This document shows, in pieces, positions 33,983 through 62,359 of a DNA stretch of 64,000 nt. The stretch is taken from sequence record PQ480333.1. One strand, written 5' to 3'. The notes under the pieces are model-generated. The model made no database searches. It was given only the letters and a program-made list of their open reading frames with translations, and was not told where the DNA came from. Source of the stretch: Escherichia phage NRG-P0074. Made by a program: the position numbers and the translations under genes. Within the stretch, counting starts at the first letter, position 1; each line of letters opens with the position of its first letter.

Positions 33983-34018
33983 GTTTACATAAGGATGATG
34001 GTGTGATACTATCATCCT
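33983..34018 (+). promoter_or_regulatory. Early promoter with flanking inverted repeat (PeSL-like) upstream of first internal-protein gene
   Basis: gtttac -35; arms aggatgat / atcatcct bracket gatactat. Confidence 0.5.
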
Positions 34019-34046
34019 ATCAAATAAACAACCTCAAGGAAATAAA

Positions 34047-34334
34047 ATGAAATCCTATAAAGAATTTATATCACCTGTTGCTAACGTTTCTACTCTGACC
34101 GAAGCAACCCTTACTTCTGAAGTTATTAAAGCAAATAAAGGACGTGAGGGTAAACCAATGATTAGTCTGGTTGACGGCGAAGAAGTAAAAGGTACTGTTT
34201 ACTTAGGGGATGGATGGTCTGCTAAGAAAGATGGCGCTACTATTGTTATCTCTCCGGCTGAAGAGACTGCACTGTTTAAAGCTAAGCATATTTCTGTAGC
34301 TCAGCTTAAAATTATTGCAAAAACTCTTCTGTAA
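34047..34334 (+). CDS. Internal protein (Ip) with capsid targeting sequence; positional equivalent of T4 ipI
   Basis: N-terminus MKSYKEFIS... resembles the T4 internal-protein targeting sequence MKTYQEFIAE; 95 aa; located just after 57B. Confidence 0.65.
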   Translation: MKSYKEFISPVANVSTLTEATLTSEVIKANKGREGKPMISLVDGEEVKGTVYLGDGWSAKKDGATIVISPAEETALFKAKHISVAQLKIIAKTLL

Positions 34335-34337
34335 GTA

Positions 34338-34375
34338 GTTTACATGCTGATAGGACTATGTTATAGTAGTCCTAT
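34338..34375 (+). promoter_or_regulatory. PeSL-like early promoter cassette (copy A of ataggactatgttatagtagtcctat)
   Basis: gtttac then 9-bp arms ataggacta / tagtcctat around the -10. Confidence 0.5.
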
Positions 34376-34395
34376 CAAATTAAATGGAGTCCACA

Positions 34396-34635
34396 ATGAT
34401 TTATTACGAAAGTATCGGAACTAAAGTGGTTGCTAAAACCATTACTCGTGAAAAGTTTGCAAAGATATTCGATATGCGTTATAAAAAATCTGAACACAAA
34501 GGCATCCGATTCGAAGATGCGCACTGTACAATTTGCCCTTATAATGAAGACATAAACGGTACAATCGTTCCATTGGTAGAAGCTTCACATGATGACCTCT
34601 GGGATGAATATAATATCGCATGTCGTGAAATTTAA
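34396..34635 (+). CDS. Hypothetical protein (79 aa)
   Basis: ORF with GGAG ribosome-binding site; start taken at the second ATG (MIYYES...). Confidence 0.45.
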   Translation: MIYYESIGTKVVAKTITREKFAKIFDMRYKKSEHKGIRFEDAHCTICPYNEDINGTIVPLVEASHDDLWDEYNIACREI

Positions 34636-34663
34636 GTTAATGAATTAATCCGAGGAAAATATT

Positions 34664-35620
34664 ATGATGTTAGTTATTGGTTCTCGTGCACTTCACTATC
34701 ATGGTCTTATTGATTCTAGCGCTATCAAAAATAGCGATTGGGACTTTATTGCGGACCAAGGTTCTTGGAATGCATTCAAAAATCAAATGATGGGTGTATA
34801 TGTTCACCAAGATAACCCTGATGTTCAAGTTTTCAAATGCTTACATAATGGATGCGAAACTCATTTTGAAGCATATATTGTTCCGGCAATCACTAATGTC
34901 CGTGAATTAGTCGGTGAACTCACTCCTGAAGATTTCACGTCTTCTTATGACCTTTTAAAATACGCCAAGAAAAATTTGACTAAAGACTGTTTGAACGGGT
35001 TTTACTGGGCAACTCCTGAGATATGTCTTGCAATTAAGATGTCTCATCGTTTCAAGAAAAATAATCCATTCTTTTTAAAGACTATGAACCATATTCAGTA
35101 TCTTCGTGGTAAAGGTGTTACACTGAACGATGAACTTACTGAAATTATGCTGAAACGCCAGAAAGAAACCTTGAACTATGCTCACCCGGTTCTTGACACT
35201 TCTAAAAGTGCGTTCTTTAAAGATGACATCTATACATATGACCACGATACTATTCATGAAGCCATTGCACTAACAGACCGTCCAGCTTATACATTTTACA
35301 TGAAAGATGGTTCTGAAGTCATGACCTCACGTGAGAAGTTCGAATCATTACCAGAAATGGTCAAATTGGCTGGTGTATACGAAGAATCATGTGTACTAGC
35401 ATTAGAACGTTCTCAAATTCCTAATGACTTTAAAATTAACCCTGAAGCCAGTTTCATGATGGCATTAGAAAAAGTCTGCACAAGCATCACCTCCGGTTGG
35501 TTCCGTGAATACGCCTGGGAAAACTACAGCAAAGTAGTAAGTATGTACCAAAGCTTAGGACATGACGATTACGTCAAACGTTTCAAACAAAATTTCCATA
35601 TGGTAAAACCTTTCAAATAA
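34664..35620 (+). CDS. Hypothetical protein (318 aa), weak nucleotidyltransferase-like N-terminal motif
   Basis: IGSRALHYHGLIDSSAIKNSDWDF resembles a GS...DxD motif but spacing is atypical; function not established. Confidence 0.5.
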   Translation: MMLVIGSRALHYHGLIDSSAIKNSDWDFIADQGSWNAFKNQMMGVYVHQDNPDVQVFKCLHNGCETHFEAYIVPAITNVRELVGELTPEDFTSSYDLLKYAKKNLTKDCLNGFYWATPEICLAIKMSHRFKKNNPFFLKTMNHIQYLRGKGVTLNDELTEIMLKRQKETLNYAHPVLDTSKSAFFKDDIYTYDHDTIHEAIALTDRPAYTFYMKDGSEVMTSREKFESLPEMVKLAGVYEESCVLALERSQIPNDFKINPEASFMMALEKVCTSITSGWFREYAWENYSKVVSMYQSLGHDDYVKRFKQNFHMVKPFK

Positions 35621-35632
35621 TTTCGCAAAACT

Positions 35633-35670
35633 GTTTACACAATTATAGGACTATGTTACAGTAGTCCTAT
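35633..35670 (+). promoter_or_regulatory. PeSL-like early promoter cassette (copy B, ataggactatgttacagtagtcctat)
   Basis: Near-identical to the copy at 34350. Confidence 0.5.
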
Positions 35671-35690
35671 TAAAACATGAGGAGAATATT

Positions 35691-35996
35691 ATGAAATTAG
35701 GCGAAACCAACCGAATTGGTCTTTTAACAATATTTGCATCACTTTTTTACGCAGCTCTTTCTGTTGCAGTATTACAAAAGGCTTACAGTATGGATGGTGT
35801 TCCTGGTTTTGTATTCTTATCACCATTTTTGCTATTCGTTGGAGCTTTGTTATTATATGCCACGACTAGTTTCGACCATAATGTCTGGGTCAATTATAAA
35901 CGTAAATTGTCCGAAGAAGAACACGCAGAAGCTCGTAAAAAAGCTATTGAATCTACCAATCTAGAAAATTTCATTAAAGAATGTCGAGGAAAATAA
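35691..35996 (+). CDS. Small membrane protein (101 aa, two predicted transmembrane helices)
   Basis: Hydrophobic segments LLTIFASLFYAALSVAVL and FVFLSPFLLFVGALLLYA. Confidence 0.5.
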   Translation: MKLGETNRIGLLTIFASLFYAALSVAVLQKAYSMDGVPGFVFLSPFLLFVGALLLYATTSFDHNVWVNYKRKLSEEEHAEARKKAIESTNLENFIKECRGK

Positions 35997-35997
35997 T

Positions 35998-37856: not shown

Positions 37857-37864
37857 GTAATAAA

Positions 37865-37888
37865 TACCTCCTATAAACGTGGGAGGTA
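37865..37888 (+). promoter_or_regulatory. Hairpin sequestering the ribosome-binding site of gene e
   Basis: tacctcc ... gggaggta inverted repeat; the right arm is the GGGAGG ribosome-binding site; the same arrangement is documented for T4 gene e. Confidence 0.6.
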
Positions 37889-37890
37889 TT

Positions 37891-38657: not shown

Positions 38658-38711
38658 TGTTTACTTCCTCCAAGGACTTTGATACTATACATTCATCAAC
38701 TACTTGGAGGA
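38658..38711 (+). promoter_or_regulatory. Early promoter with inverted repeat whose right arm contains the denV ribosome-binding site
   Basis: gtttac; arms ttcctccaag / cttggaggaa. Confidence 0.45.
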
Positions 38712-38715
38712 AATT

Positions 38716-39129: not shown

Positions 39130-39135
39130 GGAAAA

Positions 39136-39399: not shown

Positions 39400-39429
39400 G
39401 TTTACGCTTAAGTATTAATATGGTATAAT
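39400..39429 (+). promoter_or_regulatory. Early promoter (GTTTAC, TGgTATAAT)
   Basis: gtttac at 39400-39405, extended -10 tggtataat. Confidence 0.5.
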
Positions 39430-39459
39430 TACTCTATCAAAACAAACAAGGAAACAAAA

Positions 39460-39777
39460 ATGAAAACGTATAAAGAATTTATTGCAGAATCCGCCAACCA
39501 ACGCGTTGAAGGTGGTTATATTTGGATTGAACAAGTTGAGCCACCGAGCCGCACTTCTACAGGTAAATGGAAAATTACTGTTGACGGTCCTGGTGGTAAA
39601 CGTAGGACTCTTAAAGAAATTAATGGGTACTATGAAGAAGCTCTTTCGGATGCAGGAACTTACATGATGCAAATCATGATTAAAAACCCTGAAAACCGTT
39701 TTGCAGCTAAAGTCTTCCGTCGTATTGGTAATAAACTTTATGATGCATACTCTAAAAACTTCCCTAAAGAATAACAT
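39460..39777 (+). CDS. Internal protein (Ip) with capsid targeting sequence
   Basis: N-terminus MKTYKEFIAES; 105 aa. Confidence 0.65.
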
Positions 39778-39799
39778 AAATTAAAACAATAGGAACAAA

Positions 39800-40129
39800 A
39801 TGAAAACATATCAGGAGTTTATCACTGAAGTTACATTATCTGCGGAACAGAAAGCTGCTATCGAAGAAGGTAAAAATCCCAAAGTAACATACAAAGTAAA
39901 TAGTAAAGGCGTTTTTGATGGCTTGGTTCAAGACCCTGAATTGAAAAAAGCTCTTTCTAAAACTAATGCGTACTTTGCTCCTAAATTTAACACAGCCGGT
40001 GTACTTATTGGATTGGATGTATTCAACTCTAAAGGTGTTCTATCTAATGCCTTTGGTTATGCCGCTAACAAAATTACCAAAGCCGCATGGGAATCCAATA
40101 CCAAACAAGCTCAAAAGCCTAGAGTATAA
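39800..40129 (+). CDS. Internal protein (Ip) with capsid targeting sequence
   Basis: N-terminus MKTYQEFITEV; 109 aa. Confidence 0.65.
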   Translation: MKTYQEFITEVTLSAEQKAAIEEGKNPKVTYKVNSKGVFDGLVQDPELKKALSKTNAYFAPKFNTAGVLIGLDVFNSKGVLSNAFGYAANKITKAAWESNTKQAQKPRV

Positions 40130-40302
40130 TTCTTGCCTAATAAAGGGAAACGCAACCTCTCCTCATGAACGTCGAGTCCTCTGAGTGATGTACCTTTTCC
40201 AACCTGTAATAAGGTCGAGCGCAATGCGGTAATGGGTTTACATAGCGAGTCGAAGGACCTAACATGTGCCACGGAATGGCCCCAACCTAAAAGAGAAACT
40301 AA

Positions 40303-42211: not shown

Positions 42212-42215
42212 AGTA

Positions 42216-42265
42216 GTTTACTTCTCCTCTAGTTGTGTTACTATAGACCTGTCAACTAGAGGAGA
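42216..42265 (+). promoter_or_regulatory. PeSL-like early promoter upstream of regB (13-bp inverted repeat)
   Basis: gtttac; arms tctcctctagttg / caactagaggaga flank tgttactatagacctgt; right arm contains the ribosome-binding site. Confidence 0.55.
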
Positions 42266-42272
42266 AATCAAA

Positions 42273-45408: not shown

Positions 45409-45414
45409 TTTACT

Positions 45415-45443
45415 AGCCCCTTCCGAAAGGTTGGGGCTTTTTG
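45415..45443 (+). terminator. Rho-independent terminator
   Basis: agcccc-ttccgaaaggtt-ggggct followed by TTTTT. Confidence 0.7.
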
Positions 45444-45453: not shown

Positions 45454-45504
45454 GTTTACTTCTCCTCAGGTTGTGTTATAGTAAACCTTACTTACTAGAG
45501 GAGA
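45454..45504 (+). promoter_or_regulatory. PeSL-like early promoter
   Basis: gtttac; arms tctcctc / gaggaga around gtgttatagt. Confidence 0.5.
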
Positions 45505-45509
45505 ACGTT

Positions 45510-45696: not shown

Positions 45697-45903
45697 ATGC
45701 TTTACGATTATACTGGAAAATCTGAAGACGGTGTACTTGAACTTTTACCTGAAAGCGCTGAAGATGATGATATGGTGGCGATGTTTTGTAAAAATGGCCC
45801 TGGGGATAAGGGATGGATTTATCTTCGTCAAGAAAATGACTTAATTGTTTTGGACCCTAAACAAGTTGAAGAACTTTATCAACATTTAAAACACAATCGG
45901 TAG
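45697..45903 (+). CDS. Hypothetical acidic protein (68 aa)
   Basis: ATG 45697 with ribosome-binding site GTGAGGA. Confidence 0.4.
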   Translation: MLYDYTGKSEDGVLELLPESAEDDDMVAMFCKNGPGDKGWIYLRQENDLIVLDPKQVEELYQHLKHNR

Positions 45904-45941
45904 TTTACAACTTGGTAGGACTATGTTATAGTAGTCCTACC
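45903..45941 (+). promoter_or_regulatory. PeSL-like early promoter cassette (copy C, ggtaggactatgttatagtagtcctacc)
   Basis: Near-identical to the cassettes at 34350 and 35645. Confidence 0.5.
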
Positions 45942-45960
45942 AAAACAAATGGAGAACAAA

Positions 45961-46708: not shown

Positions 46709-47185
46709 ATGATTATCAATGAAAACTCTTGGCACTTTAAAATTTATGCCGCGTTCAATAGTACATGGAATCGTCCGAAAACGTTATGTGCTTATTTTTG
46801 GAAAACGTTTCTCCCGGTATTGGCTGCTTCAATTATTGGATTTGCGATTTTAGCAGCAGTCACAATCATTGGCCAGGAAATTTTAACTAAATTCTTTGTT
46901 TTTAGCAGTCTATGGACATTAGTTCTGGCTTCAATTGGTGTAGGCATTTTAATGGTAGCAGTCATGGCTTTTATTGCTACCGGGTTGGTAATTGGTCCGT
47001 CTTGGTTGTTAGACAAATATAACGACAGAAAATATTATAAAGAAATTGAGCTCATTGCACAAAACCAAGAACGAATTAAAAATGGACTTGAGCCTATTGA
47101 ACGTAAGAAATCGATTATCGTTGAATTTTTAAAAGCTCGTAAAGCTAAAGTGTGTCCTACTCTTGAATACAAGCCAGGCAAATGA
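46709..47185 (+). CDS. Membrane protein (158 aa)
   Basis: Two to three hydrophobic helices (LAASIIGFAILAAVTIIG, LVLASIGVGILMVAVMAFIATGLVIG). Confidence 0.5.
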   Translation: MIINENSWHFKIYAAFNSTWNRPKTLCAYFWKTFLPVLAASIIGFAILAAVTIIGQEILTKFFVFSSLWTLVLASIGVGILMVAVMAFIATGLVIGPSWLLDKYNDRKYYKEIELIAQNQERIKNGLEPIERKKSIIVEFLKARKAKVCPTLEYKPGK

Positions 47186-47964
47186 ATTATATCAAATGTT
47201 ATGATGCAATAATTCAACGAGGAAAACTTAGAGGCAGTGATAAGTCTGAGTTGAATTATTATACTGAATCCCATCACATAATCCCTTCATGTATTGGAGG
47301 GAGTGATGACCCGAGTAATAAAGTTTTATTGACTGCCAGGGAACATTTTATCGCTCATTGGTTATTATCAAAAATTCACCCAAACTCTGAAGGATTGATT
47401 TACGCTTACTGGGCGTTCTATAATTTAGGCGAAGATGCTTTAGGACGAAATCTTAAATTAACCTCAAGAGGCTATAAAGACGTAAGGGAAAAGTTTTCAG
47501 AAATTCACTCTAATAGAATGAAAGATATATGGGAATCACAAGAATATCGTGATAAGCGTTCAGCGACCATGAGCCTCCCTGAGATAAAGGCTAAAATGTC
47601 AGATTCTCAAATAGAGGCACAGAATAGACCTGAAGTTAAAGCAAAAATATCTACTGCTATCAAAGAGGCCTTTAAGAGAGATGATGTTAAAGAACGGCAT
47701 TCAAGAGCTGTTAAAAAGGCCCTAGATAATCCAGAAACTAAAAAGAGACAGTCTGAAGCGTCTAAAGCTAGACAACGAACTGGTAAACACTGGGAAGATT
47801 ATGATATGCTTTACGAACTTTGGATTAAATTGAATCGACCTAAGCGTGGGGCTTTCGGAACCTATATTAGTAAAATGGGTTATCCTAAATCAAATTACCA
47901 ACGCTTAATATTACAGTTCATTGAAGATTATGAAAGGAAAGTGAATAATGAAAACGATTGTTAA
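47182..47964 (+). CDS. HNH homing endonuclease (Mob-like)
   Basis: HNH motif ESHHIIPSCIGGSDDPSNKVLLTAREHFIAH; C-terminal basic repeats. Confidence 0.75.
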   Translation: MNYIKCYDAIIQRGKLRGSDKSELNYYTESHHIIPSCIGGSDDPSNKVLLTAREHFIAHWLLSKIHPNSEGLIYAYWAFYNLGEDALGRNLKLTSRGYKDVREKFSEIHSNRMKDIWESQEYRDKRSATMSLPEIKAKMSDSQIEAQNRPEVKAKISTAIKEAFKRDDVKERHSRAVKKALDNPETKKRQSEASKARQRTGKHWEDYDMLYELWIKLNRPKRGAFGTYISKMGYPKSNYQRLILQFIEDYERKVNNENDC

Positions 47965-48934: not shown

Positions 48935-48937
48935 TAA

Positions 48938-48954
48938 GGGCCTTCGGGCCCTTT
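48938..48954 (+). terminator. Terminator-like hairpin
   Basis: gggcc-ttcg-ggccc followed by TTT. Confidence 0.45.
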
Positions 48955-48982
48955 AGGGGGTCAAAATATTTTTAAAAAGTAG

Positions 48983-49018
48983 TGTACATGCTTTTAGGAT
49001 ATGTTATTATAGACCTAT
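48983..49018 (+). promoter_or_regulatory. Early promoter (GTGTAC -35 variant) with tgttattatagacctatc motif
   Basis: Motif shared with the cassettes at 881 and 49283. Confidence 0.45.
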
Positions 49019-49040
49019 CAAAACAAGAGGAGAAAACAAA

Positions 49041-49259
49041 ATGAAAACCAAAATGTTAGAAATGATTCGTGAAGCTGGTGATAAAGGTCTTATGGTTAAC
49101 ACTCGTGATGCAGACCAACGTCAAGCATTCGGTGAACTGAAAGCTAAAGGTCTAGTTAAAGCATCCTTAGGAATCGGTAATGCATTACGAGTCACCTTAA
49201 CCCCAGCCGGTAAAGCAGTGTTCTTTCAACCTCTTACCAAAAAATCTCGTCGCAAATAA
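49041..49259 (+). CDS. Hypothetical small basic protein (72 aa)
   Basis: Ribosome-binding site GAGGAG. Confidence 0.45.
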   Translation: MKTKMLEMIREAGDKGLMVNTRDADQRQAFGELKAKGLVKASLGIGNALRVTLTPAGKAVFFQPLTKKSRRK

Positions 49260-49261: not shown

Positions 49262-49299
49262 GTTTACTTTTGCTTTAAACATGTTATTATAGACCTATC
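49262..49299 (+). promoter_or_regulatory. Early promoter with an overlapping MotA-box-like TGCTTTA
   Basis: gtttac 49262-49267; tgcttta 49271-49277; tgttattatagacctatc. Confidence 0.45.
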
Positions 49300-49329
49300 G
49301 AAACGAAATGAGTAAATTTGGAGAATAAA

Positions 49330-50738: not shown

Positions 50739-50774
50739 GTTTACACAGGTCTATGGACATGTTACTATAGACCT
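50739..50774 (+). promoter_or_regulatory. PeSL-like early promoter
   Basis: gtttac; arms aggtctat / atagacct around gttactat. Confidence 0.5.
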
Positions 50775-50795
50775 ATCAACTACTAGAGGTAAAAC

Positions 50796-51320: not shown

Positions 51321-51382
51321 ACGCTTTACCCAAGGACGGGTTATAATGGTTTTGAGTTCCAATTCAATCTGAGGAAATAGTT

Positions 51383-52378
51383 ATGAGCATTACATCTGAT
51401 GCGGTAAAACATGAAATTAACGGTTTATGTGCTTCACAGATTAAAGTGTGGTTTAAAGACCATAATGATCGCAGAGCACTTAATTATGAACAAATTGCTA
51501 TCCAAGTTCATCAATTACTGGTTAGTAAATTTGATTTTCATATGCCGTCTGAAATCTATACTAATCTACCGCGAGCGCTTATTAAAGCATGTAAAGGTTA
51601 CGGAAAATCAATGGCCGATGGAATCTTCAGCGCGCTGAATAAACTTAACGTTCTGTCGATGATTAACTCTAACAATATCCTGCGTAATTTAGGACGTACT
51701 GATTTGTTCGGTCGTGAACAGGGTAAAATGCCTTTGAAATGGATTGTTGCTCATCTTAACGAGAACCAAACACGTTTTCTGGCCGTATCAGCACGTTTAC
51801 AAATGGGCTTAGATCGTCAGATGAACTTTAAAACTCATCCACGTTATTCAGGTTCAACAGACTTTTATAAATGTGAGCTTCAAAAGGTCAGTGGCAAAAC
51901 CGTCTTAGTAGTTCGTGTAACGTTTGAAGGACGACGTCAAGGATATTTTAACCTAATCGGCTCTGGTCTTAAACATTGTGGATTTATCGACGAAGTTGAT
52001 ATCAAGCGAGACGGCACTGGATATCGTATTGGATATGTTTGTACTCTTAAAGAAGAGATTTTAGGACCAGCTCCAGGACTAAAAGACGTTAGATATAAAG
52101 ACGAGCTCGTTGAAGAAATAAAAGAAGTTGAATATGATATCAACCAAGAAGATGCTCTTAAAGACCTTATTGATGAACTGAATCAAGACGTTATTCCGGT
52201 TCAGAAATTTGAATCAAAACATGCTGAGCAAATCAAATACTTTGAAGCTTTGATTAACGAACTTAATGTAACTATTCAACAGACTGACGATGAAATCTCA
52301 CGATTAGCAGGCTTAAACGGTAAAAATAAAACAGAACGAGCTAATCTTATTCAAGTAGTAAAACTTCTTAAGGAATGA
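51383..52378 (+). CDS. Hypothetical protein (331 aa) with C-terminal coiled coil
   Basis: First of three tandem similarly sized ORFs; C-terminal heptad-like region. Confidence 0.5.
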   Translation: MSITSDAVKHEINGLCASQIKVWFKDHNDRRALNYEQIAIQVHQLLVSKFDFHMPSEIYTNLPRALIKACKGYGKSMADGIFSALNKLNVLSMINSNNILRNLGRTDLFGREQGKMPLKWIVAHLNENQTRFLAVSARLQMGLDRQMNFKTHPRYSGSTDFYKCELQKVSGKTVLVVRVTFEGRRQGYFNLIGSGLKHCGFIDEVDIKRDGTGYRIGYVCTLKEEILGPAPGLKDVRYKDELVEEIKEVEYDINQEDALKDLIDELNQDVIPVQKFESKHAEQIKYFEALINELNVTIQQTDDEISRLAGLNGKNKTERANLIQVVKLLKE

Positions 52379-52408
52379 TGTACAACCAAGGATGGTTGGA
52401 GTATAATA
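52378..52408 (+). promoter_or_regulatory. Early promoter cassette caaccaaggatggttggagtataat (copy 1)
   Basis: Inverted repeat caacca / tggttg followed by gaGTATAAT. Confidence 0.5.
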
Positions 52409-52433
52409 AATTTTTCAACATGAGGAATATAAA

Positions 52434-53397: not shown

Positions 53398-53428
53398 GTT
53401 TACAACCAAGGATGGTTGGAGTATAATG
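53398..53428 (+). promoter_or_regulatory. Early promoter cassette caaccaaggatggttggagtataat (copy 2)
   Basis: About 30 bp identical to the cassette at 52381. Confidence 0.5.
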
Positions 53429-53455
53429 AATCTATCTTAACGAGAGGAAAATATT

Positions 53456-54406
53456 ATGACACGTTCACATTACATTGAATACTTTGCAGGTCTTATCGCT
53501 AACGTTCATGCCCAACGTGCTTCTGGTGCACTAGGATTTGATGTTCCACACCGAGATGTAGTAAGTGGTATTCTTCGCGATTTTGGTACATACATAGGCC
53601 AAGAAAATCATATCTGTAAAGATACTCAAAATGCGTATTCTCATTCGTTAGGGACGTTGCTTCAATGGTTCAAACGTTCTCGTTTATTATCTTCTACTGT
53701 AGCTCGCGATAACATTAAAAACTTTATGAAGCCGAGCTTTATTAAATCTGTGACATCTAAAACCGATTTGGTTGAATTCACTATTGTTAATGATGTTAAA
53801 AAGACTCATTTGGCTGATTGGTTAACTACCATTCCTGAAACTAAATTTGCTGATAAATTTGCTTGTGAATTCAATAACCAAGTGAATATGCTTTTTAAAC
53901 ATTCTCGTAAATTATTCACAGGCGGCGATGATCGTACAAATACAGTTCATGCTAAAGATTGGGTTACTGCAGTGTTCAAACCAACCGGTAATGGTACCGC
54001 ATCATTATCAATTGATATTCAGGTTCCTTATTATTACTCACGTAATCTCGGCACCATGAAAGCTGAAGAAATTAAGAAGCACAATAAAACCATTCGTTCG
54101 CTGTCTTATAAACTTCGCATGATGTTAAGAATCATGGACGTGGTAGAAATGTATGATGAAACCGAAGATAATGGTTCAATGTTATACAGTTCTCGCATTC
54201 AAATTAAGTTGAAGAACCCTAACGAGTATAAGCCTAAGCCTATTAAAGAGCCTAAAGCAGAAAAAGTTGATAACTTAAGAGAAGAACGCGAATATCTCAA
54301 ATCTCGTCTGAAAGAAGTCGAAGCCCAGATTGCAGAACAAACTAAATCGTTAAAAGCTCTGAATGCGAAAGCGGATGGTTTACGAAATGCCATTGAGGTG
54401 TTATAA
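53456..54406 (+). CDS. Hypothetical protein (316 aa) with C-terminal coiled coil
   Basis: Ribosome-binding site GAGAGGAAAA. Confidence 0.5.
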   Translation: MTRSHYIEYFAGLIANVHAQRASGALGFDVPHRDVVSGILRDFGTYIGQENHICKDTQNAYSHSLGTLLQWFKRSRLLSSTVARDNIKNFMKPSFIKSVTSKTDLVEFTIVNDVKKTHLADWLTTIPETKFADKFACEFNNQVNMLFKHSRKLFTGGDDRTNTVHAKDWVTAVFKPTGNGTASLSIDIQVPYYYSRNLGTMKAEEIKKHNKTIRSLSYKLRMMLRIMDVVEMYDETEDNGSMLYSSRIQIKLKNPNEYKPKPIKEPKAEKVDNLREEREYLKSRLKEVEAQIAEQTKSLKALNAKADGLRNAIEVL

Positions 54407-54711
54407 TGAAACTACGCCTTTTAGAGGATATTGATATGAGCACTAATCACCGCTTGGTTAAGTTTATTGACAATAGTTCAAAGATTGAATTTGTTCAGCG
54501 AGATAAAATCCACGGTGAAGAAGAGTTCGTTCCTCCGGCATGGAACGAAATAATGAAAATGGTTGAACGACGTGAAAATGCTGCCAAATCGGCAGCAAAA
54601 CATCCATGCCCGGAATGTGGAACTATCCAAGTCCAACTGGTTAACTGGACCACTGATAACTTGAAATTGAAATGCCGTAAATGCTTCCACAAATTTGAGA
54701 GAACATTATAA
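54406..54711 (+). CDS. Zinc-ribbon protein (101 aa)
   Basis: CPEC ... CRKC pair. Confidence 0.45.
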   Translation: MKLRLLEDIDMSTNHRLVKFIDNSSKIEFVQRDKIHGEEEFVPPAWNEIMKMVERRENAAKSAAKHPCPECGTIQVQLVNWTTDNLKLKCRKCFHKFERTL

Positions 54712-55733: not shown

Positions 55734-55861
55734 ACCGTGGTATTCGGCTCGATGGGAGACGGTCGAGCCAGACGTCGAAACAGTTTACAACGACGAAGAA
55801 ACGTGTTATGATGGACCTACAGTAAACGATATGATTGATTTGGAAATGGGAAGAGATTATT

Positions 55862-56032
55862 ATGCAAGTTAAATTGTTATACCGTTTATTAAAAAGTGGC
55901 GAACACGATTGGTATGTGTTGATTAAAACTGAACCAAATTTTTTCTCCGGACGACCATTTACGGTTCGACCAACTAAACGTCAGCTTCGCAAAGCGAAAC
56001 GCACGCATCGCAACTTTTATAGAGGATATTGA
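55862..56032 (+). CDS. Small basic protein (56 aa)
   Basis: ATG 55862; the track ORF starts at an upstream TTG. Confidence 0.3.
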   Translation: MQVKLLYRLLKSGEHDWYVLIKTEPNFFSGRPFTVRPTKRQLRKAKRTHRNFYRGY

Positions 56033-56033
56033 T

Positions 56034-56459
56034 ATGAATATTTCTGACACACGTGGTAAGTGGTTCAAGATTGTTAAAGATGACGAAGAACTCCAAGATA
56101 AGTTTCCTGAATTAAAGAAAGATACAATCATCAAGGTAATTGGTACTACGACCGAAGATGGTTATGGCGACCATGGCATTATTGAAGTGATGTTGAACAC
56201 TGGTGAGAAACTTTGCATCTATGACCGTGATACTTCTCTTTGGTGCTTCTGGGAATCACATTCAATAGATGAACTTGAAGAAATTGATTCGGCTGATATT
56301 TCGGATGTGCTAGGTAGTAAACTTGGTGAATTCGAAGGTGAACGAATTTCTTATGCATTAGCTAAATTAGCCGGACAAGAAAATAACGACGGCTATGAAG
56401 GTAACCTGATGCAAGCAGCCGCAGAATACATTGAATATTTAGAAAGACGTTTAAGTTAA
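56034..56459 (+). CDS. Hypothetical acidic protein (141 aa)
   Basis: ORF; synteny upstream of gene 49. Confidence 0.45.
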   Translation: MNISDTRGKWFKIVKDDEELQDKFPELKKDTIIKVIGTTTEDGYGDHGIIEVMLNTGEKLCIYDRDTSLWCFWESHSIDELEEIDSADISDVLGSKLGEFEGERISYALAKLAGQENNDGYEGNLMQAAAEYIEYLERRLS

Positions 56460-56494
56460 TAAATACCCTTATCTATTTAAGGTAAGGGTTTATC

Positions 56495-56968: not shown

Positions 56969-58782
56969 AAATTGAAAAAGAAATTGAAGGATTAATTTAT
57001 AAAACTAATAAAGATCTTTTGAACGAGAATGCTAATAAAGATTCTCGTGTTTTTCCAACTCAACGGGACCTTATGGCTGGTATTGTGTCTAAGCACATTG
57101 CCAAAAATATGGTCCCGTCTTTTATTATGAATGCGCATGAAAGCGGAATCATTCACATGCATGATATTGATTATTCTCCTGCTCTTCCGTTTACCAATTG
57201 CTGTTTAGTCGATTTAAAGGGGATGCTTGAGAATGGATTTAAGCTAGGTAATGCACAGATTGAAACTCCTAAATCAATTGGCGTTGCTACTGCAATTATG
57301 GCACAAATTACCGCACAGGTTGCTTCACACCAGTATGGCGGAACTACATTTGCGAATGTAGATAAAGTACTTTCTCCTTATGTTAAACGCACCTATGCAA
57401 AACATATTGAGGATGCAGAAAAATGGCAAATCGCTGATGCGTTGAATTATGCTCAATCCAAAACAGAAAAAGATGTCTATGACGCATTTCAAGCTTATGA
57501 GTATGAAGTAAATACTCTCTTTAGTTCAAACGGACAAACTCCTTTTGTAACAATTACATTTGGTACGGGAACTGACTGGACTGAACGAATGATTCAGAAA
57601 GCAATTCTGAAAAATCGTATTAAAGGTCTTGGTCGTGATGGGATAACTCCTATTTTCCCTAAGCTTGTTATGTTCATTGAAGAAGGTGTTAATCTTTATA
57701 AAGACGATCCAAACTATGATATTAAACAACTTGCGTTAGAATGTGCAAGCAAAAGAATGTATCCTGACGTTATTTCGGTTAAGAATAATAAAGCTATTAC
57801 CGGTTCTTCAGTTCCAGTTTCTCCAATGGGCTGCCGTAGTTTCTTGAGTGTATGGAAAGATTCAACCGGTAATGAAATTCTTGATGGACGTAATAATCTC
57901 GGTGTTGTAACACTGAATCTTCCTCGCATCGCGTTAGATTCTTATATTGGAACACAGTTCAATGAACAGAAATTTGTTGAATTATTCAATGAACGAATGG
58001 ATCTGTGTTTTGAAGCCTTGATGTGTAGAATTAGTTCCTTAAAAGGAGTTAAAGCAACTGTTGCTCCTATTCTTTACCAAGAAGGTGCATTCGGGGTTCG
58101 TCTTAAACCTGATGACGATATAATTGAGTTATTTAAAAACGGTAGAAGTTCAGTGTCCCTAGGATACATTGGTATTCACGAATTGAATATTCTTGTCGGT
58201 CGTGATATTGGACAGGAAATTTTAACTAAAATGAATGCTCGTCTTAAGCAGTGGACCGAAAGAACCGGTTTTGCTTTTAGTTTATATTCTACTCCTGCCG
58301 AAAACTTGTGTTATCGTTTCTGTAAACTCGACACAGAAAAATATGGAAGTATAAAGGATGTCACTGATAAAGGCTGGTACACTAATAGTTTCCATGTTTC
58401 AGTAGAAGAAAATATTACTCCGTTTGAAAAGATTTCTCGTGAAGCGCCATATCATTTCATAGCGACCGGCGGTCATATTTCTTATGTTGAACTTCCTGAT
58501 ATGAAAAATAACTTAAAAGGACTTGAGGCTGTATGGGATTATGCTGCACAACATTTAGATTATTTTGGTGTTAATATGCCAGTAGATAAATGTTTTACAT
58601 GCGGAAGTACCCATGAAATGACTCCTACTGAAAACGGATTTGTTTGTTCAGTTTGTGGAGAAACTGATCCTAAAAAGATGAACACAATAAGAAGAACGTG
58701 TGGTTATTTGGGAAATCCGAACGAGCGCGGATTTAATCTAGGCAAAAATAAAGAAATCATGCATAGGGTTAAACACCAATGA
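56965..58782 (+). CDS. nrdD: Anaerobic ribonucleoside-triphosphate reductase NrdD (605 aa, uninterrupted)
   Basis: Full-length continuous ORF; C-terminal glycyl-radical region and Zn-ribbon CxxC...CxxC. Confidence 0.92.
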   Translation: MKIEKEIEGLIYKTNKDLLNENANKDSRVFPTQRDLMAGIVSKHIAKNMVPSFIMNAHESGIIHMHDIDYSPALPFTNCCLVDLKGMLENGFKLGNAQIETPKSIGVATAIMAQITAQVASHQYGGTTFANVDKVLSPYVKRTYAKHIEDAEKWQIADALNYAQSKTEKDVYDAFQAYEYEVNTLFSSNGQTPFVTITFGTGTDWTERMIQKAILKNRIKGLGRDGITPIFPKLVMFIEEGVNLYKDDPNYDIKQLALECASKRMYPDVISVKNNKAITGSSVPVSPMGCRSFLSVWKDSTGNEILDGRNNLGVVTLNLPRIALDSYIGTQFNEQKFVELFNERMDLCFEALMCRISSLKGVKATVAPILYQEGAFGVRLKPDDDIIELFKNGRSSVSLGYIGIHELNILVGRDIGQEILTKMNARLKQWTERTGFAFSLYSTPAENLCYRFCKLDTEKYGSIKDVTDKGWYTNSFHVSVEENITPFEKISREAPYHFIATGGHISYVELPDMKNNLKGLEAVWDYAAQHLDYFGVNMPVDKCFTCGSTHEMTPTENGFVCSVCGETDPKKMNTIRRTCGYLGNPNERGFNLGKNKEIMHRVKHQ

Positions 58783-59249
58783 ATTATGATAGATTTTATC
58801 CTTGCGGTTTTGTGAATGGCCCTGGTTGCAGGGTCGTTCTTTTCGTTACAGGGTGTTTGCATAAATGCGAAGGGTGTTATAATAAATCAACATGGAATGC
58901 TAGAAATGGTATTCCATTCACTGGTGAAACACTAGAACAATTAATTGAATGTTTGAATAATGATTATATAGAAGGATTAACTATAACTGGAGGAGACCCT
59001 CTCTATCCTGATAACAGAGATGTGATTCACTCTGTGGTTCAAACTATTAAAAATCTTTATCCCAATAAAAGCATTTGGTTGTGGACAGGATATAAGTTTG
59101 AAGATATTAAACAGCTAGAAATGCTTAAATATGTTGATGTTATTATTGATGGGAAGTATGAGAAAAATCTTCCGACTAAAAAGCTGTGGCGAGGATCAGA
59201 TAATCAGCGACTTTGGTCAAATACCGATGGGGTGTGGAAACATGATTAA
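58779..59249 (+). CDS. nrdG: Anaerobic ribonucleotide reductase activating protein NrdG (radical SAM)
   Basis: CLHKCEGCYN radical-SAM cysteine motif. Confidence 0.88.
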   Translation: MNYDRFYPCGFVNGPGCRVVLFVTGCLHKCEGCYNKSTWNARNGIPFTGETLEQLIECLNNDYIEGLTITGGDPLYPDNRDVIHSVVQTIKNLYPNKSIWLWTGYKFEDIKQLEMLKYVDVIIDGKYEKNLPTKKLWRGSDNQRLWSNTDGVWKHD

Positions 59250-59359
59250 ATTGAATTACATTATGGATACTATAAATGATATGATTTTTCGTTTTGGTCC
59301 AGAATTTTATTCGCAATATAGTTTAGTGCTTATCAATGCTTAGTTAATTAAGGGTAAAT

Positions 59360-59572
59360 ATGTATAAATTTCGTAAAGGTTTAGCTGATTTTCTTACAAC
59401 TGTAACATTCTTTTTGTTTATGGCAGTTGGAGCTATTTTTCTTATTCCTTTTACTGCTGTATTTTTCGTGATTAGTTTAATTTCTCCGGAAAAGGGTTTA
59501 TCCTCCAGCGAATTCAATGAACGTTTGGACAAAATTACTAATAAACTGAATTCTGTTCTTGGCAAGGAATAA
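59360..59572 (+). CDS. Small membrane protein (70 aa)
   Basis: Hydrophobic core TTVTFFLFMAVGAIFLIPFTAVFFVISLI. Confidence 0.45.
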   Translation: MYKFRKGLADFLTTVTFFLFMAVGAIFLIPFTAVFFVISLISPEKGLSSSEFNERLDKITNKLNSVLGKE

Positions 59573-59574
59573 TT

Positions 59575-59883
59575 GTGGAACACAACAAGATTGAAATTTA
59601 TGGCATCCCTGAAGAAGTAGGACGTTGTCCAGGATGTTATACTGTTACAAAACTTTTAAAGGAGCTCAATGCTCCTTATACATTTTATAAAGTCCTCACT
59701 AATAATGGTAAGATTGAATATGACCGTCCTTTAATCGTATCTCTTGCTAAACGTGCAGGATTCACTTCACTTAATATTCGTTATCCTGTCATATTTTTAA
59801 ATGATAAGAAACAAAAGAATATTGCAGAGTTTAAAAAGTCCTTGATTTCATTAGGATACGACTCTGATATCATAGAAGATTGA
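59575..59883 (+). CDS. nrdH: Glutaredoxin-like protein NrdH (GTG start)
   Basis: CPGC redox motif; position after nrdG; ribosome-binding site AAGGA 6 nt before GTG. Confidence 0.65.
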   Translation: MEHNKIEIYGIPEEVGRCPGCYTVTKLLKELNAPYTFYKVLTNNGKIEYDRPLIVSLAKRAGFTSLNIRYPVIFLNDKKQKNIAEFKKSLISLGYDSDIIED

Positions 59884-59907
59884 CCAGGTGCCGCCTGGTC
59901 TTCTTTA
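59882..59907 (+). terminator. Rho-independent terminator
   Basis: gaccagg-tgccg-cctggtc followed by TTCTTT. Confidence 0.65.
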
Positions 59908-59991
59908 TCCCATTTCTAATATAATCCATTGGAATCTTCACTTCACTATCTCCTTGTGCCCCTCTCAAATCGAAAATATTTTCATAAAACA

Positions 59992-60020
59992 GTTTACATC
60001 CTCAATAGACGTGTTAAGAT
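59992..60020 (+). promoter_or_regulatory. Early promoter
   Basis: gtttac -35 and gtgttaagat -10 region. Confidence 0.4.
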
Positions 60021-60049
60021 TAAACCATCTACTATAGAGGAAAATAAAA

Positions 60050-60231
60050 TGACAATTGAAGATAAAGAAATTAAGGTTGACCAGTACTATTCCGTCAACG
60101 GTAATGTAGTACAGATAACCAGAGTTTCAAGCCTGGATGTTTGGTACCGTTCAATCAAATATCCAGAAATTGGCGAAATGCTTTGTGACCGTGGTATCTT
60201 CTGTTCAATTGCGAAGGAAATTAAGCCATGA
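60050..60231 (+). CDS. Hypothetical protein (60 aa)
   Basis: Ribosome-binding site AGAGGAAAA. Confidence 0.4.
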
Positions 60232-60476
60232 TTAGTTTAGATTCAAAGAAAGTTGTTCTAACCCTTAAAGTTAATGACGAGCGACCGGTATTCGTTACCA
60301 TTTCCGATTTGCATGTTGAAATTGCTAATGGCGTCCGTACTTATCAAACGTCTAAAACACATTGGGACTATATCCCGATGTTGACGCTTACTCAGTGTTT
60401 AGAATCAATCGGTCTTAAAGACCTTTCAGTAAGTGAAGTGAATTTTATCAAACGCATTGTATCAATCAACCTCTGA
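60228..60476 (+). CDS. Hypothetical protein (82 aa)
   Basis: ORF with overlapping start. Confidence 0.4.
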   Translation: MISLDSKKVVLTLKVNDERPVFVTISDLHVEIANGVRTYQTSKTHWDYIPMLTLTQCLESIGLKDLSVSEVNFIKRIVSINL

Positions 60477-60483
60477 GGTACTT

Positions 60484-60777
60484 ATGGGTAAAACATATCG
60501 TCGTAAAGATTTGAAAGTTCGCGATTACGACTATTTTGGTAAGCGTAAAGCTCCTGACGGTGTTAGCCACAAAGACATGGTTGAAAACATTTTCCGCTCA
60601 GATAAATGGAAACGTATGAAAGGCGTTGATTCTGAAGTCAAGAATGAAATGAATCGACAACTCCGCAAAGAAGTTCGTAAGTTGAAAAAAGATGTTTACA
60701 GTAAAGAAGATTATGATTATAATACTTCTCATACTGAAGCCAAACGTAAAGCTAACGAATGTTATCGTTACAGTTGA
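60484..60777 (+). CDS. Hypothetical basic protein (97 aa)
   Basis: Ribosome-binding site TGAGGT. Confidence 0.4.
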   Translation: MGKTYRRKDLKVRDYDYFGKRKAPDGVSHKDMVENIFRSDKWKRMKGVDSEVKNEMNRQLRKEVRKLKKDVYSKEDYDYNTSHTEAKRKANECYRYS

Positions 60778-60784
60778 GGAAATT

Positions 60785-60919
60785 ATGAATATCAAACGAA
60801 TGCTTTTTAAGCAGGGATTATATACTTTAAATGTTAATCCAAAGGGTGACACAACTAAATGGTCTGTAAATGACTGGATTAAGTTCATCGATGAAAATGG
60901 GGCGTGGAACACAAAATGA
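60785..60919 (+). CDS. Hypothetical protein (44 aa)
   Basis: Ribosome-binding site TGAGGAAA. Confidence 0.3.
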   Translation: MNIKRMLFKQGLYTLNVNPKGDTTKWSVNDWIKFIDENGAWNTK

Positions 60920-61116
60920 ATCCTGAATCTATGTTATCGCAAAAGCTTCGTGAAGAACGTGCCGAATTCTTTGCCAACATGAAACTCAATGGTGTTGAGG
61001 ACGAAGACTTCTTACGCTGGTTCTGGATTTACAAATACAAAGAATGCCAGCACGCTGTACTACTGACTTGTGCAGTTATGTACGAAGGCTGGAAAGGCGC
61101 TAAAAAGTTCGGTTAA
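60916..61116 (+). CDS. Hypothetical protein (66 aa)
   Basis: ATGA overlap. Confidence 0.4.
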   Translation: MNPESMLSQKLREERAEFFANMKLNGVEDEDFLRWFWIYKYKECQHAVLLTCAVMYEGWKGAKKFG

Positions 61117-61118
61117 TA

Positions 61119-61158
61119 ATGTACAACGATAGGAAGACATGTTATTATCTTCCTATCG
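61119..61158 (+). promoter_or_regulatory. PeSL-like early promoter (11-bp inverted repeat)
   Basis: atgtac -35 variant; arms cgataggaaga / tcttcctatcg around catgttattat. Confidence 0.5.
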
Positions 61159-61179
61159 TCTTAAAATGAGGAAAATATC

Positions 61180-61419
61180 GTGGCCCAAGAATTAGATTTT
61201 ATCAAATTCAAAAAACACCTCGACGTTAAAATTGGGGATTCAATTGTTAGGATTGAGTATGACATTTTAACAGATGCTATTACTGTTAGTTGTGATGGAA
61301 ATAGTTTCAGCTTCGATACAACCGAAAACAAATACCCAATCTATAAAGGCATCTTTGATATGGGTGTTGATATTACTCCACGTGATACAAATTACTTACT
61401 TTTCATGCTTAAAAAATAG
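61180..61419 (+). CDS. Hypothetical protein (79 aa, GTG start)
   Basis: Ribosome-binding site TGAGGAAAA 7 nt before GTG. Confidence 0.4.
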   Translation: MAQELDFIKFKKHLDVKIGDSIVRIEYDILTDAITVSCDGNSFSFDTTENKYPIYKGIFDMGVDITPRDTNYLLFMLKK

Positions 61420-61427
61420 TATACAAA

Positions 61428-61462
61428 CTCTTGAGAGATGAGTATAATTCTCTCGTTGGATA
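61428..61462 (+). promoter_or_regulatory. Early promoter with short inverted repeat
   Basis: gtatac -35 variant; gaGTATAAT -10 between gagag and ctctc arms. Confidence 0.45.
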
Positions 61463-61485
61463 ATAAAATAACCGAGGAAAATAAT

Positions 61486-61818
61486 ATGTCTACTAAAATC
61501 AAAAACGTAGTTAATTCTTTCGCTTTCGATAAAGTTGTTGCTCTTCTGGAATCTGGCAATATTGTTACTCCTCAAGTTCTTGACGCGTGGGAATTCCGTC
61601 TTTATGAAATCATGCAAAAACACGGCCAGAAAATTGGACGTAATTCTATTCGTGAAATTCTAGTACAATATATTCTTTCTGAATTTGACGTTGCTGCATT
61701 TGGTGTTGAATCTAAAGCTTATCAGAAACATGAAATCTCTGAAAAGACTATCCGTCGTATGAAAAATCAACGTAAGAAAAAATTCGTTGACCTGAAAATT
61801 GTTAAGGCGGTAAAATGA
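61486..61818 (+). CDS. Hypothetical protein (110 aa)
   Basis: Ribosome-binding site GAGGAAAA. Confidence 0.45.
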   Translation: MSTKIKNVVNSFAFDKVVALLESGNIVTPQVLDAWEFRLYEIMQKHGQKIGRNSIREILVQYILSEFDVAAFGVESKAYQKHEISEKTIRRMKNQRKKKFVDLKIVKAVK

Positions 61819-62042
61819 GCGTATTAACAGAAACTTTGATTAATGACCTGCGTCTAGCTGGTTACGAAGTTGGTACAAATAGCCTAGGTCTTCCTCAGAT
61901 TGAAGGGCCTGGATTTATCCTAGAATATGAATTCAAACAATGGTGGTTATATGCTACGGTTGACGATGCGTTGAATATTGATTTCGTTGACCAATTTGAT
62001 TCGCTGGATGCTGCTCTTGAAGCAGCAAAGGAACTAGAATGA
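61815..62042 (+). CDS. Hypothetical protein (75 aa)
   Basis: ATGA overlap. Confidence 0.4.
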   Translation: MSVLTETLINDLRLAGYEVGTNSLGLPQIEGPGFILEYEFKQWWLYATVDDALNIDFVDQFDSLDAALEAAKELE

Positions 62043-62308
62043 AATTAACTCGAATCAGTATAACTGAAGAAAAGCTGGGCGAATTTTATGTTGACGAATA
62101 CATGAAAGTCACGTATTTTCCATTCGTTAAAGGTGTTGGTTTTTGGGAAACTCATGTATCTCAATTAAACGAAGGCGACTATAACGAAACACATGAGAAC
62201 TTTTTAGATTTTCTTTATAATGCCGGTCTTACTGAGCTTTATATCGATATCCATGAGTTCAAACGTTTAATGGAAAAAGTGTTTCAGGCTTATTGTTTGC
62301 TCCGATAG
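62039..62308 (+). CDS. Hypothetical protein (89 aa)
   Basis: ATGA overlap. Confidence 0.4.
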   Translation: MKLTRISITEEKLGEFYVDEYMKVTYFPFVKGVGFWETHVSQLNEGDYNETHENFLDFLYNAGLTELYIDIHEFKRLMEKVFQAYCLLR

Positions 62309-62315
62309 TATCTCG

Positions 62316-62359
62316 TGCTTTAAGATAGGTCTCTAAATATTATGATATAATAGACCTAT
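62316..62359 (+). promoter_or_regulatory. Promoter region upstream of gene 55: MotA-box-like TGCTTTA plus inverted repeat ataggtct / agacctat around gaTATAAT
   Basis: tgcttta at 62316-62322; tataat at 62346-62351; spacing does not fit a simple middle promoter, so the architecture is uncertain. Confidence 0.4.

Follow-up and report, generated by a model that had tools for sequence, protein, structure and literature searches.

Early promoter cassettes with and without inverted repeats in the RB69-like Escherichia phage NRG-P0074

Promoter early stem-loops (PeSLs) are composite elements of an A/T-rich tract, an early promoter, a stem-loop, a Shine-Dalgarno sequence (SD) and a start codon, known from RB49/phi1, T4/PST, and KVP40/nt-1 (Arbiol et al., 2010, PMC2839356; Comeau et al., 2014, PMC4122927). 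Their stem-loops include ones located between -35 and -10 or over -10 (Arbiol et al., 2010, PMC2839356). They cluster in hyperplastic regions, where they border the indels that distinguish close relatives, with hybrid elements remaining, and the PeSL model includes excision as encapsidated mini-circles. Similar elements are described here for the early region of Escherichia phage NRG-P0074, in a stretch of 64,000 nucleotides from sequence record PQ480333.1 (the window). The initial annotation of this DNA had proposed about 18 early promoters between 33983 and 62359, nearly every one wrapped in an inverted repeat, and near-identical copies that could act both as promoters and as recombination substrates.

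Elements with a T4-type promoter and a weak A/T-rich stem at the internal protein (IP) loci of T-even phages were called PeSL analogues by Arbiol et al. (2010, PMC2839356). In the summary of Repoila et al. (1994) given in that paper, the locus is 57B-ipI, and IP genes are swapped between an early promoter with a weak stem-loop and a shared N-terminal leader. The early promoters of RB69 were predicted by Nolan et al. (2006; Virol J 3:30, PMC1524935), who do not mention inverted repeats or recombination at promoters (the terms 'palindrom' and 'stem-loop' are absent), and RB69 is not mentioned in the PeSL papers (PMC2839356; PMC4122927). T4 genes e, 49, soc, and I-TevI have hairpins that sequester the ribosome-binding site (RBS) and contain an internal late promoter; the SD pairs with sequence upstream of the promoter start, and only the transcript of that promoter is translatable (review PMC3014915). 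The gene regB is described solely as having "a typical early promoter" (review PMC3014915), and an SD-sequestering hairpin around an early promoter is not described in the T4 reviews consulted, PMC3014915 among them.

The cassettes of the window share with PeSLs the composite build (10 of 20 cassettes), the variable position of the stem-loop, mostly between -35 and -10 or over -10, and the concentration in a hyperplastic region with hybrid elements at indels. They differ in having a T4-type promoter (GTTTAC) in place of TTGACA, in stems that are A/T-rich and cassette-specific, not GGGG...CCCC, in the lack of a U tail after the stems, which makes a terminator function doubtful, and in that only half of them have a stem-loop. 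The T4/PST stem-loops are drawn upstream of the promoter, which in the window is true only for hairpins at 45411, 48936, and 59882. Taken as a whole, they are probably RB69-like T4-type early promoters that recombine as direct repeats, with a separate layer of RNA hairpins in half of them.

T4-type early promoters in the early region

By its sequence, NRG-P0074 is an RB69-like Mosigvirus of the T4 type. Over 12 kb of the early region, identity to RB69 and some 160 further Mosigvirus phages is 95-99%. Relative to the RB69 map the window is reverse-complemented: minus-strand baseplate and neck genes come first, and the plus-strand early region follows, with 57B and ipI at its start and gene 55 at its end. 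The nearest record found, BEU50, is 99.5% identical in the late region. The window was aligned with RB69, three IMG/VR contigs and six GenBank Mosigvirus genomes (ten relatives). The comparison of cassettes drew on T4, on RB69-like phages and on about 40 remoter T4-like contigs covering the surroundings of tk and regB, and yielded 351 unique T4-type cassettes from about 60 loci. The early region is broken up among relatives, at least 80% of it being found in one piece in 139 records, vs 294 for the late region, and the annotated hyperplasticity of 34-62 kb is thus borne out.

The pattern GTTTAC-N17-18-TAYWRT matches 14 times, on the plus strand only (0.26 expected). When -35 variants with one or two mismatches are admitted, there are 20 plus-strand cassettes in 33983-62380, which makes the earlier figure of about 18 a fair one, and one outlier at 860. 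This corresponds to 20 cassettes per 28 kb of early region vs one in the first 30 kb of the window. A generic sigma-70 scan was non-discriminating (75 found vs 65.5 expected, and 39 vs 34.6); the T4-type pattern alone discriminates.

Within 55-90 bp the cassettes comprise GTTTAC, a spacer of 17-18 bp with TGn at its end, a -10 of the form TAnnnT, a CCTATC box, an A-rich leader, an SD and ATG. The box, conserved as AGxCCTATC, is C-rich and located at the predicted start site, and an A stands 7 nt past the -10, the predicted +1, in 15 of 21 cassettes. Mean A+T in the 24 nt upstream of the -35 is 0.70 (background 0.63 ± 0.09); the A/T-rich tract is clear at 33983, 59992, and 860 and absent at 45454, 54378, and 55783. 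Every cassette lies 5' of a plus-strand open reading frame (ORF) having an SD.

The GTTTAC -35 and the preference for C at -3 to -1 are also features of the RB69 promoters of Nolan et al. (2006), as is an A-rich upstream tract, which varies among the cassettes of the window. Upon coordinate conversion, 18 of the 20 cassettes correspond one-to-one, position for position, to RB69 early promoters, from Pe:77187 to Pe:42515; the 2006 list lacks 54378 and the region upstream of gene 55 (62323). The T4 mobD.5 promoter, orthologue of cassette 45903, has been detected by primer extension. By this orthology the sites are T4-type early promoters of predicted activity and predicted start sites, and as promoters they were already predicted in RB69 twenty years ago. 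The T4 RefSeq record contains no promoter features, and a literature search found no T4 start-site or 3'-end sequencing study.

The cassettes (Table 1) are the dominant dispersed direct repeats of the window. Because the promoter consensus is long, copies are left with 19-25 bp of identity. Three families of near-identical repeats quoted in the initial annotation are all present, each with 0 copies expected by chance: ATAGGACTATGTTAYAGTAGTCCTAT at 34350, 35645, and 45915, the last with two compensating changes; CAACCAAGGATGGTTGGAGTATAAT at 52383 and 53403; and TGTTAYTATAGACCTRTC at 881, 42236, 49282, and 50760, to which a fifth, previously missed copy at 49002 is added. Cassette 45454 and the regB cassette are 83% identical over 36 nt.

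Table 1. Coordinates of early promoter cassettes and associated features in the window. SD, arm containing the Shine-Dalgarno sequence.
Feature	Position	Strand	Inverted repeat (left arm / right arm)	RB69 promoter	Remarks
ipI cassette	33983..34046	+	AGGATGAT 33992-33999 / ATCATCCT 34011-34018	Pe:77187	-35 at 33983, -10 at 34007; repeat wraps -10
ORF 3' of cassette 33983		+			Pfam IPI_T4, E=1e-50
Hybrid early cassette	34338..34395	+	TGATAGGACTA 34348-34358 / TAGTCCTATCA 34367-34377		8-nt loop with part of -10
Early cassette	35633..35690	+	ATAGGACTA 35645-35653 / TAGTCCTAT 35662-35670	Pe:67959	
denV cassette	38659..38715	+	TTCCTCCAAG 38665-38674 (spacer) / CTTGGAGGAA 38703-38712 (SD)	Pe:64934	
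Cassette of internal-protein-like gene	39400..39459	+	none significant	Pe:64193	Exact GTTTAC-18-TATAAT
regB cassette	42216..42272	+	TTCTCCTCTAGTTG 42222-42235 (spacer) / CAACTAGAGGAGAA 42253-42266 (SD)	Pe:61376	14-bp repeat
Terminator-like hairpin	45411..45443	+	GCCCCTTCCGAAAGGTTGGGGCTTTTT		Directly 5' of cassette 45454
Early cassette	45454..45509	+	TTCTCCTC 45460-45467 / GAGGAGAA 45498-45505 (SD)	Pe:58138	
Early cassette	45903..45960	+	TTGGTAGGACTA 45912-45923 / TAGTCCTACCAA 45932-45943	Pe:57689	12-bp repeat around -10
Early cassette, GTGTAC -35	48982..49040	+	none	Pe:55296	Hairpin 48936-48953 upstream
Early cassette	49262..49329	+	none	Pe:55018	ATGTTATTATAGACCTATC common with cassette 48982
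Early cassette	50739..50795	+	AGGTCTAT 50747-50754 / ATAGACCT 50767-50774	Pe:53683	
Cassette, weak -35 ATGTAC	52378..52433	+	6 bp only, chance level	Pe:52042	25 identical bases with 53403
Early cassette	53398..53455	+	6 bp only	Pe:51019	Exact GTTTAC-18-TATAAT
Early promoter-like site	54378..54435	+	none		Exact GTTTAC-18-TATAAT; overlaps annotated nrdC.2 start; absent from 2006 RB69 list
Early promoter-like site	55783..55861	+	none	Pe:48639	In or between small ORFs
Early cassette	59992..60048	+	TCCTCAATAG / CTATAGAGGA, imperfect, over SD	Pe:43945	Terminator-like hairpin 59882-59900 upstream
Early promoter-like site	60694..60784	+	none relevant	Pe:43242	Exact GTTTAC-18-TATAAT; overlaps ORF start
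Cassette, -35 ATGTAC	61119..61179	+	ACGATAGGAAGA 61126-61137 / TCTTCCTATCGT 61148-61159	Pe:42816	12-bp repeat around -10
Early cassette, GTATAC	61419..61485	+	GAGAGA/TCTCTC, 6 bp, chance level	Pe:42515	
Gene 55 upstream region	62323..62380	+	ATAGGTCT 62325-62332 / AGACCTAT 62352-62359		Extended -10 TGATATAAT, no GTTTAC
Outlying cassette	860..918	+	none		Inside late-gene region; core TGTTACTATAGACCTATC

Two sites do not qualify as T4-type early promoters. The gene 55 upstream region lacks GTTTAC and is absent from the RB69 early list; a MotA-box-like TGCTTTA is located at 62316-62322. The candidate 40236 (GTTTAC-18-TAACAT) was dropped, being absent from the RB69 list and without a CCTATC box. 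Around it, 40130-40300 (+) is a relatively G+C-rich gap of 170 nt that separates an IP-like gene from vs.8. It contains no ORF, is not unusually structured as RNA (z = +1.9) and has no Rfam match; Rfam gave zero matches anywhere in the window. A -10-like AGAGTATAATTCT at 40119-40131 resembles the core of cassette 61419, and relatives have replacement breakpoints at 39791 and 40199.

The outlying cassette 860 precedes plus-strand ORFs 904-1185, 1189-1848, and 1885-2310 amid minus-strand late genes. Upstream of nrdC.6, at 51322-51351 (+), CGCTTTA is followed after 12 nt by TATAAT; this sequence resembles a MotA-dependent middle promoter (TGCTTtA N11-13 TAnnnT) more closely than an early promoter.

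Exchange between cassette copies in relatives

Between 33.9 and 62.4 kb, 25 distinct indels or replacements separate the window from its ten relatives. Four of the junctions have overlapping matches of 29-55 bp, and each of these four is either a hybrid cassette or a duplicate of a hairpin adjoining a cassette.

In cassette 34338, two promoters that lie 7.1 kb apart in RB69 are fused. Its left half is the RB69 cassette after ipI (Pe:76459), its right half the RB69 cassette before ORF135 (Pe:69254), and the crossover lies inside CTATGTTATAGTAGTCCTATCAAA. About 7 kb are missing at this position, including tRNA.2-4, tRNA-Met, tRNA-Arg, and e.3-e.8 (11782-19048 in the compared locus L001). The block is present between ipI and ORF135 in RB69, SSE1, moskry, and ECO111 5-P; ARAGORN finds no tRNA genes in the whole window. 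Of 223 phage records, one (KP869111.1, E. coli O157 typing phage 13) has an uninterrupted ipI/ORF135 junction. BEU50 is 99% identical on both flanks and diverges inside the cassette.

At 48982 and 49262, two relatives (L019 and L021) have a single cassette in which the left half of 48982 is joined to the right half of 49262, and ORF 49041-49259 is gone. The exchange falls within the common ATGTTATTATAGACCTATC. One hybrid cassette, with this ORF absent, is found in L004, L019, L020, L021, L023, and L066, and 51 of 167 phage records have an unbroken array of cassette, ORF 49041-49259, and cassette. The crossovers are located in the 19-24 bp identical core of -10 and start site. Since the 48982/49262 pair recombined without an inverted repeat, recombination needs the direct-repeat core but not the stem-loop. 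The proposal that the cassettes serve both as promoters and as recombination substrates thus agrees with the RB69 orthology and the hybrid junctions, except that the inverted repeat is not what drives the recombination.

Other events are located at or next to cassettes. RB69 has an additional internal-protein gene between two cassettes at 34015-34069, where the homology includes the shared IP leader. Insertions of 262-662 bp lie exactly at cassette 35633 in L018, L021, and L023. In L018, a 594-bp insertion lies between two copies of the terminator hairpin 45411-45443, just upstream of cassette 45454. A replacement in L019 has its edge at 42212, by the regB cassette, and a deletion in L021 has its edge at 62304, by the gene 55 upstream region. 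As far as the summary of Repoila et al. (1994) in PMC2839356 describes them, the T-even IP loci are similar in the locus, 57B-ipI, and in the swapping of IP genes between promoter and leader (34015-34069 and 39488), and differ in that exchange in the window extends beyond the IP loci, to 35633, 49036|49271, and 45415-45443.

The IP leader is a second recombination substrate beside the promoters, because breakpoint 39488, a replacement in two relatives, is the exact end of the IP leader repeat 39460-39489. Five small plus-strand genes (34047, 38376, 39136, 39460, and 39800) open with the common leader ATGAAAAC.TAT.AAGAATTTAT (MKxYxEF), as genes of T4 internal head proteins typically do.

Judging from these junctions, it is quite likely that homologous recombination between the cassettes, as dispersed direct repeats, has deleted, inserted, or swapped accessory genes between copies.

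Cassette-unrelated events include a MobD-type gene at 47182-47964 and swaps within the tk operon. The former (+) is an ORF of 260 aa, found only in the window among ten related Mosigvirus loci, the others having a precise gap (47173|47944). Its product is 74% identical to the T4 HNH homing endonuclease MobD, encoded at the same T4 map position, with Pfam HNH below threshold. A 600-bp insertion in BEU50 at the nrdD/nrdG junction (58779-58799, with a 21-bp overlap) and a 716-bp insertion in ECO111 5-P between genes 4 and 2 (30983-30985) look like mobile-gene insertions unrelated to promoters.

Hairpins of the cassettes and their possible role

Perfect inverted repeats of 8-14 bp occur in 10 of the 20 cassettes (33983, 34338, 35633, 38659, 42216, 45454, 45903, 50739, 61119, and 62323), and the other 10 are plain promoters. 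The initial description of nearly every promoter as wrapped in a 7-13 bp repeat was therefore overstated: repeats of 5-6 bp, such as those at 52383/53403 and 61419, are at chance level, 41% of random segments having one. Repeats of at least 8 bp were found in 8 of 21 first-pass candidates (a list that included 860 and 40236 and lacked 61119), with 0.6 expected from shuffles, and in 4.8% of random 76-nt segments of the window. Nine of the ten repeat-bearing cassettes were folded (61119 excluded), giving stem energies of -13.7 to -21.6 kcal/mol.

Among the 351 T4-type cassettes, 44% have an inverted repeat score of at least 8, vs 3% when shuffled. Complementarity of at least 8 bp is found between 33% of the cassettes' own halves vs 2.7% of halves taken from different cassettes; it is cassette-specific and therefore no by-product of the consensus. 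Of 153 hairpin-bearing cassettes, 81 have the -10 enclosed by the arms, the right one occupying about -7 to +2, and 57 have the SD within the right arm. The SD class has its left arm in the promoter spacer, at -29 to -16, taking +1 at the predicted position. In the window the SD is inside the right arm at 38659, 42216, and 45454, and imperfectly at 59992; for these three or four cassettes the right-arm RBS of the initial annotation holds.

Arm sequences vary from cassette to cassette and between orthologues, with no common operator. In orthologous promoters (regB, denV, ipI, mobD.5) the geometry is kept and the sequence changed; for example, where cassette 45903 has its repeat, the orthologous T4 promoter has one of 14 bp with an entirely different sequence. 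The regB stem covaries in T4 and other genera. Its left arms, TTCTCCTCTAGTTG in the RB69 type, TTTTCCTCTTGACTG in T4, and the variants TTTCTCCTCTTTATG and TCTCCTGTAAG, are each complementary to their own SD side (CAACTAGAGGAGAA, CAGTTAAGAGGAGAA, CATAAAGAGGAGAAA, and CTTACAGGAGA, respectively). In alignments anchored on CTCC/GGAG (SD), 95 of 112 cells are paired in the regB stem vs 71.7 ± 4.2 under permuted partners, and 71 of 98 in the denV stem vs 52 ± 4.5, several pair types being present per stem position. MAFFT combined with RNAalifold predicted zero pairs for 12 regB upstream regions, in which indels shift the arms out of register. The covariation suggests that SD sequestration at denV and regB is conserved across genera.

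Mismatches within arms comprise 21 G·T and 1 A·C (12 to 1 for independent arm pairs). The excess of G·T indicates a structure in the sense strand, for which RNA is the obvious candidate, and makes a duplex site or cruciform unlikely; the initial annotation had not considered a role at the RNA level. A similar tally at pairs flanking the stems was abandoned, as promoter bases are fixed there (C of GTTTAC, TGn, A-rich leader). Folding of read-through RNA gives an SD unpaired probability of 0.00 at 38659, 42216, 45454, and 59992; in their own transcripts it is 0.38-0.67, denV having 0.38. The evidence points to stem-loops that would be RNA elements in read-through transcripts, and not a cruciform, an operator, or a recombination signal.

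Hairpins of genes e and 49 are present in the window and serve as an internal control for known RBS sequestration. The gene e hairpin at 37863-37890 (+) has a 12-bp stem (-18 kcal/mol) with the late-promoter-like TAATAAATA, and the true start of the gene is ATG 37891 (MNIFE). The gene 49 hairpin at 56465-56489 (+), which is RBS-sequestering and conserved in the window, also has the late-promoter-like TAATAAATA. It adjoins an indel hot spot, 56021-56459, where pin is missing in L018 and BEU50, and an additional ORF is present in RB69, SSE1, and EP02SG.

Potential stem-loops before T4 ipII, ipIII, denV, and orf61.9 were reportedly noted by Valerie and coworkers in 1986.

With its left arm in the spacer, upstream of the cassette's own start, such a hairpin would form only in RNA from an upstream promoter. 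As there are few terminators between cassettes, read-through RNA should exist. In the SD class (denV, regB, 45454, and 59992) the right arm is the SD, and translation would be possible only from the transcript of the cassette's own promoter. This predicted logic equals that of the late-promoter hairpins of T4 genes e and 49, with the difference that the known internal promoter is late and the hairpin silences early read-through RNA, whereas the internal promoter in the window is early. In the second class, in which the hairpin spans about -24 to +2 and the SD is untouched, a decay barrier or an attenuator in read-through RNA may be the likeliest role, more tentatively assigned. A wider generalization can be offered as a conjecture somewhat short of even chances: the inverted repeats could be a general sense-strand RNA code making each early cassette autonomous, the spacer encoding an anti-SD or boundary arm that is transcribed only from upstream, so that read-through RNA would be silent (denV/regB class) or insulated (-10-wrapping class).

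The hairpins may instead be terminators or attenuators that shield each cassette from upstream transcription, as originally proposed for the PeSL stem-loop. This is unlikely. A stem-loop of RB49 cut lacZ expression as much as rrnB T1, a hairpin in sense-strand RNA agrees with the G·T bias, and terminator-like hairpins with U tails lie just upstream of 45454, 48982, and 59992. However, the build required of an intrinsic terminator, a G+C-rich hairpin with a U tract directly after it, is found only in these separate hairpins (45411, 48936, and 59882). Promoter-embedded hairpins all lack the U tract, having an A-rich tail (AUCAAAACA), and went unflagged in the terminator scan. Furthermore, the covariation in the SD class is pairing with the SD itself, which points to translation. 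By analogy with RB49, promoter-embedded hairpins may still attenuate, although none has a U tract.

Action of the repeats as DNA, either by cruciform or hairpin extrusion or as sites for a dimeric protein, would stimulate recombination by a site-specific PeSL mechanism or silence the early promoters. The arms do overlap the -10 region, the shut-off of T4 early promoters is still unexplained, and Arbiol et al. speculated on a stem-loop-binding protein and mapped one crossover to a loop. This possibility is nevertheless a slight one, as the arms differ across cassettes and orthologues with no shared operator, and cassettes 48982 and 49262 recombined without any inverted repeat, in the direct-repeat core. 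In a duplex or cruciform, moreover, G·T on one strand equals A·C on the other, at odds with the ratio of 21:1. For cruciform extrusion, arms of 8-14 bp are also short.

That cassette similarity and repeats arise incidentally from a long consensus or from base composition, with no role in recombination or as RNA, is largely refuted by the hybrid junctions, which are direct evidence of exchange inside cassettes, by the covariation between orthologues, and by the cassette-specific complementarity and the excess of repeats over shuffles, even though much of the shared sequence is consensus (GTTTAC, TGTTAYWRT, CCTATC box), TTTCC-like spacers often follow the -35 directly, also where no SD arm matches them, and cassette-associated indels are no commoner than under a gene-boundary null.

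Weight of the evidence and consequences for Mosigvirus

Several points weigh against the explanation preferred here, that of early promoters recombining as direct repeats and bearing a separate layer of RNA hairpins. Half of the cassettes are without a significant inverted repeat, so that any hairpin function is optional. The G·T to A·C count comprises 13 independent cases from related sequences, and a hairpin in displaced sense-strand DNA would fit the asymmetry too. The sequence does not point to any specific RNA function for the class wrapping the -10, and terminator activity has been shown for one RB49 stem-loop (Arbiol et al., 2010, PMC2839356). Regarding recombination, 13 of the 25 indels do not involve a cassette. 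The 12 that touch one exceed random positions (p = 1.4e-4); there is no enrichment over the gene-boundary null, about 30% of genes having a cassette, and breakpoint enrichment was discarded as support.

The annotated elements are real and their interpretation was largely right. They belong to a mostly known, PeSL-like kind of element, now found in one more phage group, and current views are not overturned. Modest additions are the junction evidence in Mosigvirus for exchange in the core of -10 and start site, independent of the stem-loop; the loss of the tRNA block of the window phage through cassette exchange; and the cassette specificity, covariation and G·T bias, which favor the stem-loops as probable RNA elements on read-through transcripts. 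Two properties that are lumped in the PeSL concept, the recombining repeat and the stem-loop, are thereby separated.

For annotation, the region may be treated as a series of about 20 gene cassettes with promoters as their boundaries. Part of the variation in gene content among Mosigvirus phages, the missing tRNA block for instance, can be explained by exchange in a promoter core of 19-24 bp. The hairpins provide a testable account of why denV, regB, and similar genes would depend on their own early promoter. If the general RNA code conjectured above is true, synthesis of these proteins would stop after the early promoters are switched off, despite continued transcription. The shut-off of early genes, which T4 reviews call incompletely understood, would then have a conserved, covarying post-transcriptional share.

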